Numbered from the stretch's first letter, positions 28,144 through 36,175 are shown. The stretch: DNA of 64,000 nt from Escherichia coli (GCF_013122565.1 NZ_CP053258.1), one strand, 5' to 3'. Program-made: numbers and translations. The notes: generated from the letters alone by a model not told the origin.

Positions 28144-28619
28144 CATTGGCGTATATTGCCATAGGCAGCAATCTGGCCTCTCCGCTGGAGCAGGTCAATG
28201 CTGCCCTTAAAGCATTAGGCGATATCCCTGAAAGCCGCATTCTTGCCGTTTCTTCGTTTTACCGCACCCCACCGCTGGGGCCGCAAGATCAACCCGATTA
28301 CCTCAACGCCGCCGTGGCGCTTGAAACTTCGCTCGCCCCGGAAGAGTTACTCAACCATACACAGCGCATAGAACTGCAACAGGGTCGTGTTCGTAAAGCT
28401 GAACGCTGGGGACCACGCACGCTGGATCTCGACATCATGCTGTTTGGTAATGAAGTGATAAATACCGAACGCCTGACCGTTCCGCACTACGATATGAAGA
28501 ATCGTGGATTTATGCTATGGCCGCTGTTTGAGATTGCACCGGAGTTGGTGTTTCCTGATGGGGAGACGTTGGCGACAAGGCTCACCAATTTGAACGCCTT
28601 ATGCCCACAACGCTGGTGA
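28140..28619 (+). CDS. folK: 2-amino-4-hydroxy-6-hydroxymethyldihydropteridine pyrophosphokinase (HPPK)
   Basis: 159-aa [30 protein letters not shown]...; start overlaps pcnB stop (ATGA); the last ~17 residues ([19 protein letters not shown]) differ from the K-12 HPPK tail as I remember it. Confidence 0.93.
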
Positions 28620-29023
28620 ACTTGCTATAGCAAAGAGTAAATTCATTCAGCGTTTTCTTTACGTTTTTTTAATATTAATTCTTTCTCAAATCTAAGCATA
28701 ATATTTAATAAAACGCATTTCATAGCTTTCGTGTTTTTGTCTGTGCGCTAACTATTCCGACAATAGATTAGTTAAAAAGCCTTCACCACCTTATTGATAC
28801 ATTAAAAGAATAACAGATGTAAAAATACAGACTTTTAAACGCCCAATTAATAAAAACATCATTCAAACAAATAATTAAAGATTATAAATACACACAATGA
28901 ATATTATTTATTTTCTCGCCCCCTTACATTCACCAGATCTATTTTTATTCCATTTGCATAAGCTTTATAATTTGCTGAGGTGACTCTTCTCACCTCTCTA
29001 TTATTTTTATAAGGACATTAAAT
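28620..29023 (+). promoter_or_regulatory. AT-rich ~400-bp upstream region of the fimbrial operon (likely promoter, candidate H-NS-silenced)
   Basis: Long, strongly A+T-rich non-coding stretch with many A/T tracts directly upstream of the fimbrial major-subunit gene; no ORF. Confidence 0.5.
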
Positions 29024-29596
29024 ATGTTAAAGAAAAGCGCTATTGCTGCGGCATTAGTTATGTTTACCAGTTCGGCCTTCGCGCTGGATGGCGGCCAGCT
29101 GGATTTCGCAGGTTTGGTGAGTGACAACACGTGTATCCTGCACGTCAACGGTGGTGCACAGGATGGACAAATTAATCTTGCAACCGCCACAACGGCTGAA
29201 GTTACAGGTGCTGGCGTAGTCAATGCAGCCAGTGTCGGCGCGAAACCTGAACCGTTCTCTATTACAGTGGATTGCTCAGCAAACACGCCTGCCGCCGCTG
29301 AAGCCAATCTGAATATGAGCTCAGTTTTCTTCAGTAACAGCCAGGGCACCCTGAATAACGATATGTCCGTAAGCCAGGCGGCAAGCGGCGTCGCTATTGC
29401 CGTTCACTATGTACCAAGCGCCGGCACTTTCGAGCAGGTCAAAATCAATGACAGCACCGATATTAAAAACCTCACGTTAACCAACGGTAAAGGGACCTGG
29501 AACTTCCAGGCATCTTACGTTAAGCAGGCAGCGTCGATTCCTGTCGTTGCCGGGTTTGTGAAAACCAACGCGGCTTATACGATCACTTACCCGTAA
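29024..29596 (+). CDS. yadN: Fimbrial major subunit (chaperone-usher pathway), yadN-position
   Basis: 190-aa ORF with signal peptide and C-terminal aromatic donor-strand motif (YTITYP); first gene of a 7-gene operon in the yadN position next to folK; symbol assigned by position and architecture, sequence divergent from K-12. Confidence 0.8.
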   Translation: MLKKSAIAAALVMFTSSAFALDGGQLDFAGLVSDNTCILHVNGGAQDGQINLATATTAEVTGAGVVNAASVGAKPEPFSITVDCSANTPAAAEANLNMSSVFFSNSQGTLNNDMSVSQAASGVAIAVHYVPSAGTFEQVKINDSTDIKNLTLTNGKGTWNFQASYVKQAASIPVVAGFVKTNAAYTITYP

Positions 29597-29658
29597 TTCA
29601 GATACAGACCAGGCAGTCGATGTCGGGCTGCCTGTATGACTTTAATAAGGACATCATT

Positions 29659-30402
29659 ATGACCAGGACGCGTCAGTTACTCCTTGCTTCACTTTTCACC
29701 TGCGCAGGTGCATTAGCCAGCTTTTCCGCCTGTGCCGATATTGTGCTTTCCGGCACGCGTATTATTTACAACGCAAGTCAGAAAGAAGTCTCCCTGCGTA
29801 TGGAAAACAAAGGCAGCCGCCCGCTGCTGGTACAAACGTGGATCGATACCGGGAGTGAAAACGCGGATCCCAGCACCATCACCGTGCCTTTTACCGTCAC
29901 GCCACCGGTCTCTCGTGTGGACGGTAAACGTGGGCAGACGGTGAAAATCGCCTGGAATACCAGCCAAACGTTGCCCGCCGATCGCGAAAGTGTTTTCTGG
30001 TTCAATGCGCTGGAAGTCCCCCCCAAAATGAGCGAGACCGAGGCTCAGGGGAAAAATATCCTGCAACTGGCGTTCCGCACCCGCATCAAGCTGTTTTATC
30101 GCCCGGCTAACCTGGTCGGCAGCGCCCCGGACGCCCCCAAACAACTGACCTGGCATCTGCAATCCTCTGGCGGGAAAGTTGTGCTTCAGGCCACTAACCC
30201 AACGCCATTCCACGTCTCTTTTAGCGGTATTAGCCTGATTTCGGGCGGAAAAAAATACGCCGTCGACGCCACGATGGTCTCCCCGAAAAGCAGCGCTGAC
30301 ATGACGGTGAAAGGTCTGAGCACAGCGCCCGCTGGCGCGACGATTGACTATATCGCCATTAACGACTTCGGCGGCGCCATTGAAGGCAAAGTGAAGCTTT
30401 GA
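29659..30402 (+). CDS. yadV: Periplasmic fimbrial chaperone (PapD-like), yadV/ecpD-position
   Basis: Track ORF 29620..30402; start set at MTRTRQLLLASLF (29659) with AAGGA SD; PapD-like chaperone features. Confidence 0.82.
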   Translation: MTRTRQLLLASLFTCAGALASFSACADIVLSGTRIIYNASQKEVSLRMENKGSRPLLVQTWIDTGSENADPSTITVPFTVTPPVSRVDGKRGQTVKIAWNTSQTLPADRESVFWFNALEVPPKMSETEAQGKNILQLAFRTRIKLFYRPANLVGSAPDAPKQLTWHLQSSGGKVVLQATNPTPFHVSFSGISLISGGKKYAVDATMVSPKSSADMTVKGLSTAPAGATIDYIAINDFGGAIEGKVKL

Positions 30403-30432
30403 CGCGCTGAATAACCACGCAGGGATTGCACA

Positions 30433-34238: not shown

Positions 34239-34811
34239 ATGAAATCACGTTTTCGACTGTTCGTTTCCGGCTTATGGTTTATTACAGCGGCCTGTATTGC
34301 CAACACCAATATTAATATGACCGCCAACGTTGTCAGCACCAGTTGCAAAGTCACCCTCGACAATAGCGGCAGCATTGATTTAGGCACGGTTAATTACGAC
34401 TATCTGAACACGAATACTGCCGTGGATCGCGTTTATACCGGTGGTCAGGCGTTCTACATCACCGTCAGTGACTGCGCGCAGATGGCGGGTAAAAATCCTT
34501 CCCGTCTTACGGTGAGTTTTACGCCCGTCGGGGGTACCCTCGGCGCAACTAATCAACAGGTTTTTGCCAATCAGGCAGCCGATGGCGCTAAAAACGTCGG
34601 CATCGTAATTTTATCCACCCAGGATGCGCAAAGTATTTTCAATGTGCTGGATACCCACGGCCAATCGCAAAGTATTTACCCCGTGAGCGCGGATCAGCTA
34701 GCCAATGCCACCTACCATTTTTATGCACGGATGCAGAAGATCGACCTGGCGCAAGCCGCCACCAGCGGTGTAGTGCGGGCCAGTGTGTTTGTCGGTGTTT
34801 ATTATGAATAA
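34239..34811 (+). CDS. yadK: Fimbrial minor subunit, yadK-position
   Basis: 190-aa ORF with signal peptide; C-terminal VGVYYE. Confidence 0.78.
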   Translation: MKSRFRLFVSGLWFITAACIANTNINMTANVVSTSCKVTLDNSGSIDLGTVNYDYLNTNTAVDRVYTGGQAFYITVSDCAQMAGKNPSRLTVSFTPVGGTLGATNQQVFANQAADGAKNVGIVILSTQDAQSIFNVLDTHGQSQSIYPVSADQLANATYHFYARMQKIDLAQAATSGVVRASVFVGVYYE

Positions 34812-34837
34812 CGTTTTACGTTCTCAAGGATGATGAA

Positions 34838-36058
34838 ATGAACCGTTTCCGATTACTAAAATGGGTCAAAACTCTGCTGATTTTGCTGCCCATATATTCA
34901 GGCTATCTCCAGGCTGCAAATACACTGGTTGTCGGCAGTAAAGCTACCGCTGACGGTAATGGTAGTAATAAAAACAAAGGTCCCGCTGGTGATGGTTATT
35001 CCACAACCACTTTTACCACTGGCAACAGTCAGATAGTGATCGGGCGGGCTACAACTCTTCAATACAGTAATATTAAGCTACAGTTGCAAGCCGATACCGC
35101 AGGGAATGGCAATACCGGCGCGATTTACTGCGCACCGGGCGGCATGGGGGGGCCTATTACCCTGGAGAGTCATTTCCTTAAAGCACCCTACGTTTTTGAT
35201 AACCACCAGCTCTTTAAAACCAACATACAAGGGCTGTATTTCACCATGCGCATGTATAATCTCTGGTCATACGCCACCTCTTCACCGGATGACTTTTATG
35301 TCGGGGATGCCGAGCAACAGACGCTTAACTTACACTCAACGAGCTGTCCAGGCGATCTTGGCTGGTATCAACAGCTTGGCGGTCTGGTCTCTAATATTGA
35401 TATCGACTTTTATAACGACGCTACCTTTGACCCCAGCGCCAGCGGCAGTATTGCCCTGCTGAGTGATACCACCTATCACTACTCACTGAAAAACCTGTCC
35501 CCCGGGGGAAATCTCAATACCCATACTATTTTCCAAACCTTCAATATGGGGAATGTCACATTAACCTCTCCAACCTGTTCGTCGGCGATACTCTCCGGCA
35601 ACAGCGTCAGTAAAGGCGATACGGTAGGACTGGGCGAATACAGCTCGAAAGAGGTTATCGACGGCCTGAGCGGCGTGCCTTTTTCAATTGTGCTGAAAGG
35701 GTGTTATCGGGTAACAAATATTGATGTCAAACTGACCACGGGAGCCCCTGCGGTATCAACGTCACTATTGGGCAACTCGCTGACAACCGATGCCGCCAGC
35801 GGTGTCGGCGTAGAAATTAAAGGCGAGGCCAACTCGCATTATCCTGAAGTGGTGCTCAAGCCAAACGACGCCTCCTCAATCTATAAAGCGTATGGCGATA
35901 ACCCGGAAACCTCTAACGGTATTATTGGTAACAATGCTTCGGGTTCGCCTGCTGACCAGACGCTGAATTTTACCGCGACGCTCAAGCAGGATGGTAATCA
36001 GCAAATCCGGGGAGGAGAGTTCAAAGCAACGGGCGTCTTCTCCATCACTTACCCCTGA
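34838..36058 (+). CDS. yadC: Putative two-domain fimbrial tip adhesin, yadC-position
   Basis: 406-aa ORF with signal peptide, a long N-terminal region (candidate lectin domain) and a C-terminal pilin-like domain ending FSITYP; last gene of the operon. Confidence 0.75.
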   Translation: MNRFRLLKWVKTLLILLPIYSGYLQAANTLVVGSKATADGNGSNKNKGPAGDGYSTTTFTTGNSQIVIGRATTLQYSNIKLQLQADTAGNGNTGAIYCAPGGMGGPITLESHFLKAPYVFDNHQLFKTNIQGLYFTMRMYNLWSYATSSPDDFYVGDAEQQTLNLHSTSCPGDLGWYQQLGGLVSNIDIDFYNDATFDPSASGSIALLSDTTYHYSLKNLSPGGNLNTHTIFQTFNMGNVTLTSPTCSSAILSGNSVSKGDTVGLGEYSSKEVIDGLSGVPFSIVLKGCYRVTNIDVKLTTGAPAVSTSLLGNSLTTDAASGVGVEIKGEANSHYPEVVLKPNDASSIYKAYGDNPETSNGIIGNNASGSPADQTLNFTATLKQDGNQQIRGGEFKATGVFSITYP

Positions 36059-36066
36059 GTAAAATA

Positions 36067-36090
36067 CCGGCAGCTAACCCTGCCGGTTTT
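36067..36090 (+). terminator. Rho-independent terminator after the fimbrial operon
   Basis: ccggcag-ctaacc-ctgccgg stem-loop followed by tttt, 9 nt after the adhesin stop. Confidence 0.7.
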
Positions 36091-36175
36091 GACCACAAAG
36101 GGCTAACACTCATCACCCACATCCCCTACAATGCCCTCATACTATTGATGATATTTATGGCTAACAGGGGTTATG

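Follow-up and report, generated by a model that had tools for sequence, protein, structure and literature searches.

Chaperone-usher fimbriae of Escherichia coli are divided into types by the clade of the usher and by the chromosomal locus, and the Yad type has been equated with the Salmonella Sta fimbria (Wurpel et al. 2013, PMC3559732). In E. coli K-12, the Yad genes are flanked by folK and panB, and their order is yadN-yadV(ecpD)-htrE-yadM-yadL-yadK-yadC. Yad is counted as a 'core-associated' adhesin of E. coli, and its prevalence is scored by identity thresholds. The yad genes of 19 uropathogenic E. coli strains were described as 'too distinct ... to be aligned' (PMC4850163), the minor subunits and the lectin domain of YadC were reported to be strongly variable, with two B2 subtypes (PMC13245861), and an ST410 clone is marked by an allelic replacement of yadC (PMC6715731). 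Here, the operon at this site was analyzed in a stretch of 64,000 nucleotides from E. coli (GCF_013122565.1, NZ_CP053258.1), which is designated as the window.

The seven fimbrial genes between folK and panB of the window very probably constitute an intact, selectively maintained Yad/Sta operon of the gamma type, acquired as a homologous replacement of ~8.2 kb by a cassette that moved between genera. The closest relative of the operon is the operon at the same locus of Pseudocitrobacter corydidari, and the two are ~95% identical. The rare yad allele class with near-identity to Pseudocitrobacter is new, while high yad diversity itself was already known. A full-text literature search revealed no paper on the window allele class, on the identity with the Pseudocitrobacter cassette, or on an intergeneric exchange at this site.

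An initial annotation, made before any database comparison, described seven co-directional genes on the + strand at 29024-36058, with the yad gene order and at the folK-panB locus. All seven open reading frames (ORFs) were located at these positions and are intact, and their order, sizes, and site all agree with K-12. The features are listed below with the protein identities of the seven products to their K-12 counterparts; ET201 is another E. coli genome that carries a related operon.

28140-28619, + strand: folK, left flank; E. coli-typical over the 5' 100 bp, with a divergent haplotype over the 3' ~380 bp
28620-29023, + strand: upstream intergenic region, 404 bp, AT-rich, 27.7% GC
29024-29596, + strand: major pilin, YadN/StaA-like, 190 amino acids (aa), with a signal peptide; exact protein GenBank QJU25496.1; 53% to YadN
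29610-29634, + strand: intercistronic stem-loop between the major-pilin and chaperone genes, with a 9-bp stem and a 7-nt loop
29659-30402, + strand: PapD-like periplasmic chaperone, YadV/EcpD family, 247 aa; 53% to YadV
30433-33054, + strand: outer-membrane usher, HtrE family, 873 aa; exact protein QJU25498.1; 60% to HtrE
33051-33623, + strand: minor pilin 1, YadM/StaD-like, 190 aa, start according to the ET201 annotation; 36% to YadM
33636-34232, + strand: minor pilin 2, YadL/StaE-like, 198 aa; 36% to YadL
34239-34811, + strand: minor pilin 3, YadK family, 190 aa; 43% to YadK
34838-36058, + strand: predicted two-domain tip adhesin, YadC-like, 406 aa; exact protein QJU25502.1; 42% to YadC
36066-36091, + strand: terminator-like, rho-independent hairpin, ACCGGCAG-CTAACC-CTGCCGG and then TTTT, which ends the operon
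36176-36970, + strand: panB, right flank; the 5' ~225 bp are a divergent haplotype

The start of the minor pilin 1 gene and the stop of the usher gene overlap by 4 bp. For the chaperone, a start at the in-frame ATG at 29620 would extend the protein to 260 aa; the start at 29659 is preferred because AAGGA is found 8 nt upstream and because the ET201 homologue is annotated in this way. As read from the translations, all seven products begin with a typical signal peptide, and the pilin-like products end with a C-terminal ...TY(P/N/E) motif. The window proteins are found verbatim in GenBank on an E. coli contig of 4,821,968 bp, annotated merely as 'fimbrial protein' or 'outer membrane usher protein'. 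Since the exact proteins are deposited on an E. coli contig, the operon is not an assembly artefact.

The initial annotation had also regarded the fimbrial proteins as clearly different from the K-12 alleles and the flanking proteins as K-12-like, and had proposed an allelic replacement island. The difference from K-12 is confirmed: the seven proteins are 36-60% identical to K-12, far below the identity of more than 98% that would have made this simply the reference allele. The island is borne out as well: DNA identity to K-12 drops within folK, near 28250, from ~99% to ~90%, is practically nil over the operon, and recovers to 95-99% within panB, near 36400. The statement on the flanking proteins applies to PcnB (100%), PanB (98.9%), and PanC (99.3%), not to FolK, which is only 89% identical because the divergent tract begins inside folK. 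In 100-bp bins, folK DNA is 96-100% identical to K-12 up to ~28245, drops to 89-91% after ~28246, and lies at 89-95% over the remainder of the gene. In the operon, only short segments of ~66-74% can be aligned with blastn. The first ~225 bp of panB are 85% identical to K-12, and the identity is 95-100% from ~36400 (100-bp bins). Over columns 100-480 of the folK alignment, the identity is 86% with K-12 and 77% with P. corydidari; the corresponding values are 86% and 90% for the first 230 bp of panB, and 98% and 86% for its remainder. The breakpoints are thus placed by the alignments in folK at ~28200-28250 on the left and in panB at ~36400 on the right.

The tract of ~8.2 kb (~28200-36400) has replaced the common K-12-type yad allele by homologous recombination, since both of its ends fall inside housekeeping genes. 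No mobility genes of its own are present in the replaced tract. A plasmid vehicle was rejected, as no match to the operon was found among 72,556 plasmids. A linked replacement in the fhu operon, as reported for ST410, was not found in the window: the region of fhu, mrcB, and hrpB is K-12-like, with 94-99% identity to K-12 per 500-bp bin.

The K-12 Yad operon and the window operon share the folK-panB site, the seven-gene order, near-identical gene sizes, and a two-domain tip adhesin, but the regulatory regions upstream are unrelated and the K-12 operon is lower in GC (42.4% versus 51.7%). The GC at third codon positions (GC3) is 0.34-0.41 in the K-12 yad genes versus 0.52-0.65 in the genes of the window operon. 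The common K-12 allele is thus compositionally atypical and the rare window allele is core-like, which invites the question as to the ancestral allele class of Escherichia.

Of 5426 complete E. coli genomes, 5424 have a match to the DNA on the left flank of the operon, with identities of 95-99%. The operon itself is matched by megablast in 21 of these genomes, at 93.9% at best. Eight of them match it in full length at 93.4-93.9% (ET201, VE-T9, LHM10-1, XJ5.2, CP52E, wlxctx60, UTME-7, and 6EVA), and the other 13, of the N96 and E400634 types, match at ~76-77%. A sensitive blastn search with the usher gene gave eight genomes at 95-99% and the remaining matching genomes at 60-80%. The window allele class is therefore rare in E. 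coli and not unique to the source strain. All the matching E. coli operons, as well as the O157:H7 operon, are located at the folK-panB site, and their seven genes are arranged in the same way. The ushers of the K-12, O157, and window types are 53-60% identical in pairwise protein comparisons, and the window usher is 83-84% identical to those of the N96 and E400634 types.

The clusters at 90% identity that include the window usher (about 150 members), major pilin, and adhesin are composed mostly of proteins from E. coli, with further members from P. corydidari and unclassified Pseudocitrobacter. A scan of species-representative genomes for the usher gave only two Pseudocitrobacter loci, with exact-peptide seeds that miss distant relatives; the loci of E. 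albertii and P. corydidari were reached through the protein clusters. The operon is present at folK-panB in P. corydidari (CP087880), Pseudocitrobacter sp., P. vendiensis, P. faecalis, E. albertii, and Escherichia sp. 94.0001. The operons of E. albertii and Escherichia sp. 94.0001 have the same organization as the window operon, and their ushers are 83-84% identical to the window usher. The window allele belongs to a clade common to Pseudocitrobacter, E. albertii, [Enterobacter] lignolyticus, and rare E. coli, and is not merely a diverged E. coli allele.

The P. corydidari operon has the same gene lengths as the window operon at the same locus. The two operons are 92-100% identical per 200-bp bin, with two bins at 86%, while the values for the flanks are 76-78% (folK) and 74-84% (distal panC), also in 200-bp bins, and the flanking genes are 78-84% identical. 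The usher DNA is 96% identical, while the 5' part of pcnB reaches 84%. The synonymous divergence (dS) between the two is 0.10-0.28 in the seven operon genes, and 1.08 in pcnB and 1.14 in panC. Vertical retention is insufficient to explain these values, because under it the operon could not be 5-10 times younger than the two genomes. The possibility that the Pseudocitrobacter records are misassigned E. coli is contradicted by their pcnB genes, which are 81-84% identical to those of the compared E. coli loci. The cassette has therefore moved between Escherichia and Pseudocitrobacter, or both obtained it from a third party, and an exchange between the genera is regarded as shown.

Two differences accompany this similarity. 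The intergenic region upstream of the P. corydidari operon differs from that of the window, and Pseudocitrobacter carries, upstream of its major-pilin gene, an additional tandem copy that is not present in the window. This paralogue follows folK and precedes the major-pilin gene in P. corydidari (3409-3984), Pseudocitrobacter sp. (7815-8390), and P. vendiensis (5832-6404; all coordinates of the extracted loci), and the P. corydidari copy shows 92% DNA identity to the window major-pilin gene. The window and ET201 have a single major-pilin copy.

A second pair of loci links the two genera. The DNA of the N96-type operon is ~77% identical to that of the window operon, and nearly identical to that of P. 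vendiensis. The operon and panB-panC of E. coli N96 (4010-12822 of the extracted locus) are 97.5% identical over 8.8 kb to the P. vendiensis type strain (6579-15385 of the extracted locus). The usher and panB DNA are 100% identical between them, while the pcnB and gluQ flanks are ~82% identical. These alignments indicate a second, independent exchange between the genera at the yad locus. The panB shared by N96 and P. vendiensis is 88-89% identical to typical E. coli panB and 85% to typical Pseudocitrobacter panB, which hints at a third-party source for this gene.

An ancient polymorphism, retained vertically across species and with no recent transfer between Escherichia and Pseudocitrobacter, would account for a part of these observations. 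E. coli has several deep allele classes, namely K-12, O157, N96/E400634, and window/ET201, whose ushers are 53-84% identical. The yad locus is polymorphic in Pseudocitrobacter too, because ushers differ far more than pcnB within this genus (usher DNA 75-78% identical, or 22-25% different, versus 94-98% identical, or 2-6% different, for pcnB). Each class also has its own diverged haplotype of the folK 3' and panB 5' segments, as expected for long-lived balanced alleles. Retention alone, however, predicts that the operon is at least as diverged as the core genes, and the opposite was observed, with dS of 0.10-0.28 in the operon versus 1.1 in pcnB and panC. The identity of the usher and panB between N96 and P. 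vendiensis, within a stretch of 97.5% identity, is also contrary to it. It is very unlikely that retention is the whole explanation; an old polymorphism probably exists, and a recent exchange is required in addition.

The operon is also under constraint. The seven ORFs are intact and equal in length to their P. corydidari counterparts, and the ratio of nonsynonymous to synonymous divergence (dN/dS) is 0.05-0.27 in all seven genes. Thus, the operon has been maintained by purifying selection.

The adhesin is composed of a signal peptide (residues 1-26), a lectin domain (~27-243, nt 34916-35566), and a pilin domain (244-406). The only Pfam domain on it is Fimbrial (PF00419), at residues 255-405. 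An AlphaFold2 model (pLDDT 88) has two domains. In a fold search, the pilin domain of the model resembles pilins and the N-terminal domain resembles known fimbrial receptor-binding domains; the model matches FimH, FocH, LpfD, and CupB6 as a whole, and the receptor-binding domains of AtfE, UclD, GafD, and MrkD. The protein is thus predicted by its model to be a tip adhesin of the lectin-plus-pilin type. The profile of the adhesin found no solved structure of a YadC-like lectin domain among the PDB sequences; only pilin domains were matched. Type 1 (Fim) pili and other pili with two-domain adhesins (FimH, LpfD, AtfE, UclD, and GafD) are alike in assembly logic and in the fold class of the adhesin. 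The FimH-type adhesins are however only 8-14% identical to the window adhesin in the lectin domain, and the lectin domain of FimH is ~158 aa long, compared with ~215 aa in the window adhesin.

Among the Yad adhesins, protein identity to the window adhesin in the lectin domain and in the pilin domain is 31% and 52% for K-12 YadC, 16% and 34% for O157, 82% and 96% for ET201, and 95% and 96% for P. corydidari, respectively. A receptor specificity that differs from K-12 YadC is plausible, and it is considered probable because the lectin domains of the two share only 31% identity. D-xylose and annexin A2 have been reported as receptors for other YadC-type alleles. The xylose binding of YadC, as far as it is cited in PMC13245861, cannot be assumed for the window adhesin. 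One protein with 90% or more identity to the window adhesin, VTQ30555.1, is deposited as 'Streptococcus pneumoniae' on a contig of 3.5 Mb; this record is almost certainly a mislabelled enterobacterial genome.

The ET201-type operon is mosaic relative to that of the window. Its proteins are 94-98% identical to the window proteins (98% for the major pilin), except for the adhesin, whose lectin domain is a different module, and the upstream intergenic region is shared, with 95% identity. The window and ET201 are only 70-80% identical in DNA at 34800-35400. The lectin domain shows 78% DNA identity to ET201 with dS 1.18 and dN/dS 0.10, and its dS to P. corydidari is 0.25. The lectin module has been exchanged separately, because the window follows P. 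corydidari in this part and not ET201. Positive selection as the cause of the lectin divergence from ET201 was rejected: dN/dS of 0.10 together with saturated dS of 1.18 points to an old, constrained, imported module. In usher DNA, ET201 is 98% and the window 96% identical to P. corydidari. The common upstream region and the lack of the extra pilin gene in both suggest a common entry of the window and ET201 operons into E. coli, or a common unsampled donor.

Several observations weigh against the reading of a maintained Yad/Sta operon exchanged between genera, and they concern the family assignment, the expression, and the edges of the tract. As to the family, four subunits score below the NCBIfam equivalog cut-offs: the major pilin (best family StaA NF011776, 147 bits versus a cut-off of 230), minor pilin 1 (StaD, 86 versus 228), minor pilin 2 (YadL NF011797, 148.5 versus 206, with StaE close behind), and the adhesin (YadC NF007268, 275 versus 382). 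The window usher, moreover, is only 60% identical to K-12 HtrE. A 2026 survey scores Yad by HtrE identity of at least 80%, and O157 and phylogroup E strains come out Yad-negative (PMC13245861); the query in that survey is EC958, while the window usher was compared here with K-12 HtrE. One could thus suppose a different fimbrial type outside the Yad/Sta lineage, merely placed in the yad site. Against this supposition, the best family of the usher is the HtrE equivalog NF007337, which is matched at full length (residues 17-868) with 1356 bits versus a cut-off of 830, and the next NCBIfam family gives only 562 bits. The chaperone passes the cut-off of NF007398 (YadV, 354 versus 285 bits), as does minor pilin 3 for NF011794 (YadK, 205 versus 132). 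A Sta or Yad family is the best match for all the subunits, including the four below the cut-offs. The locus is that of Yad, with identical order and sizes of the genes, and the O157 usher, which is accepted as Yad in the literature, is likewise 60% identical to K-12. It is therefore extremely improbable that the operon belongs to another type.

As controls, K-12 HtrE, YadV, YadK, and YadC and the O157 usher matched the same NCBIfam families, with scores against NF007337 of 1701 bits for K-12 HtrE and 1561 bits for the O157 usher. PapC_N (PF13954), Usher (PF00577), and PapC_C (PF13953) are present on the representative of the 90% cluster of the window usher, and PapD_N (PF00345) and PapD_C (PF02753) are recorded on the chaperone homologues of P. 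corydidari and Pseudocitrobacter sp. The usher domains, a PapD-like chaperone, and pilins with a two-domain adhesin, which characterize the classical gamma-type chaperone-usher systems, are thus all found, and so are an HtrE-family usher by family scores, the folK-panB position, and the seven-gene order of Yad/Sta. Since the usher family and the locus agree with the definition in PMC3559732, the window operon is assigned by homology to the Yad/Sta family of chaperone-usher fimbriae, and not to a new system or mechanism. Salmonella Sta (staA-G) is similar in that StaA and StaD are the best families for the major pilin and minor pilin 1, and in that Salmonella ushers are ~61-63% identical to the window usher; it is however no closer to the window than K-12 HtrE (~60%), and the scores are under the equivalog cut-offs.

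As to the expression, the 404-bp region 28620-29023 is presumed to be the promoter and regulatory region of the operon. It contains a single, weak sigma-70-like site at 28847-28875, and promoter-like sites in the scan are no more numerous than in shuffled sequence. The 71-nt segment with the intercistronic stem-loop has a minimum free energy of -17.5 kcal/mol with a z-score of -1.6, which is not beyond chance. The K-12 yad operon is cited in PMC11287998 and PMC3559732 as cryptic under laboratory conditions (Korea et al. 2010) and unless artificially expressed, so that the window operon may be silent as well. An IS1 is inserted in the operon of VE-T9 (NZ_AP027963.1), a carrier of the window-type allele, where it splits the match in two, and the operon is thus inactivated in at least one lineage. 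These observations would fit a cryptic, decaying remnant carried as silent passenger DNA. Such decay does not agree with seven intact ORFs of the same lengths as in P. corydidari, nor with the dN/dS values of all the genes despite dS up to 0.3. Other Yad alleles are expressed from the native promoter in enterohemorrhagic E. coli and induced by human serum in extraintestinal pathogenic E. coli (PMC11287998, PMC13245861), which is also contrary to it. A decaying remnant is thus very improbable.

The working of the operon can be proposed from the chaperone-usher pathway and from the structures of type 1 and P pili among the fold matches. The six pilin-type proteins would be exported by Sec, and the PapD-like chaperone would cap the subunits by donor-strand complementation. 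The usher would polymerize them in the outer membrane, with the adhesin first as the tip, the three minor pilins next as adaptors, and then the major pilin as the shaft. Transcription would start in the upstream region of 404 bp and 28% GC, with a promoter that is likely silenced by H-NS, for which this AT-rich region is a likely target. The stem-loop at 29610-29634 after the major-pilin gene may act as an mRNA attenuator or stabilizer that sets the stoichiometry of pilin to assembly proteins, and the terminator before panB would end the transcript. In the N96 and E. albertii alleles, this position is also taken by a hairpin, of another sequence, which would agree with the usual part of such elements in ensuring an excess of pilin. 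A phase-variation switch was rejected as well. The 404-bp region has chance AT-rich repeats and a single GATC, and neither fimS-like inverted repeats nor Pap-like paired GATC sites were found in it. Type 1 (Fim) differs in this respect, since its fimB/fimE-type invertible switch has no counterpart in the window operon. No known cis-regulatory RNA of Rfam was found in or beside the operon.

As to the edges, no match to the window upstream region was found in K-12, O157, N96, or Pseudocitrobacter, and the folK 3' and panB 5' segments of the window resemble neither K-12 nor P. corydidari. These sequences thus point to an unsampled immediate donor, and they do not fix a direction of the transfer. 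GC and GC3 are uninformative as an indicator of direction, as the operon GC3 agrees with that of core genes in either genus. An import into E. coli is mildly favored over the reverse direction, because the related alleles occur in 8 + 13 of 5426 E. coli genomes versus every sampled Pseudocitrobacter lineage.

The 3' 380 bp of folK (28240-28619) and the 5' 230 bp of panB (36176-36400) are hypervariable among all the allele classes of both genera. K-12 and O157 are 83% identical in the folK segment and 85% in the panB segment, and P. corydidari and P. vendiensis are 75% identical in folK versus 96% in pcnB. Such a halo of divergence would be expected around a long-lived selected polymorphism with breakpoints in the flanking genes. 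The pairings between E. coli and Pseudocitrobacter, of which at least two are separate (P. corydidari pairs with window/ET201, and P. vendiensis with N96, at ~100% identity), and the hypervariable edges in folK and panB suggest a wider reading, which is put forward tentatively and with somewhat less than even confidence: folK-panB may be a hotspot of intergeneric cassette exchange under balancing or diversifying selection, where entire seven-gene cassettes, and the lectin module separately, were swapped repeatedly among Escherichia, Pseudocitrobacter, and probably further Enterobacteriaceae, and the window adhesin may have a specificity new to E. coli, imported from an insect- or environment-associated genus.

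The locus is a clean case of intergeneric homologous replacement with the flanking housekeeping genes as recombination arms, and it reveals no new mechanism. Under the present scoring, strains like the source would be counted as Yad-negative, although their operon is complete, constrained, and of this family. The presence of several deep allele classes, some of them near-identical to those of another genus, bears on adhesin typing schemes, and accounts for the earlier failure to align the yad genes. The allele classes also single out a set of lectin domains for receptor work.

Some observations were made outside the replaced tract. The rpnC/yadD gene, for an Rpn-family recombination-promoting nuclease, is located directly downstream of panC on the - strand (38207-39136), an arrangement of E. 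coli that is also seen in E. albertii and in Pseudocitrobacter. Within 37834-39136 of the window, the spacer that separates panC from rpnC and the 3' end of the latter are only 77-85% identical to ET201, which has an extra 'transposase' fragment in this region. In the intergenic region between mrcB and hrpB, a gap between blastn segments corresponds to ~115 bp in K-12 versus ~13 bp in the window (21327-21340); the difference probably reflects the presence or absence of a REP-type element. Two RNAs score above the Rfam gathering threshold elsewhere in the window: the HtrA 5'-UTR RNA thermometer at 5084-5129 (- strand), upstream of a degP/htrA-like ORF (3665-5089, - strand), and the tp2 small RNA at 62916-63029 (+ strand).

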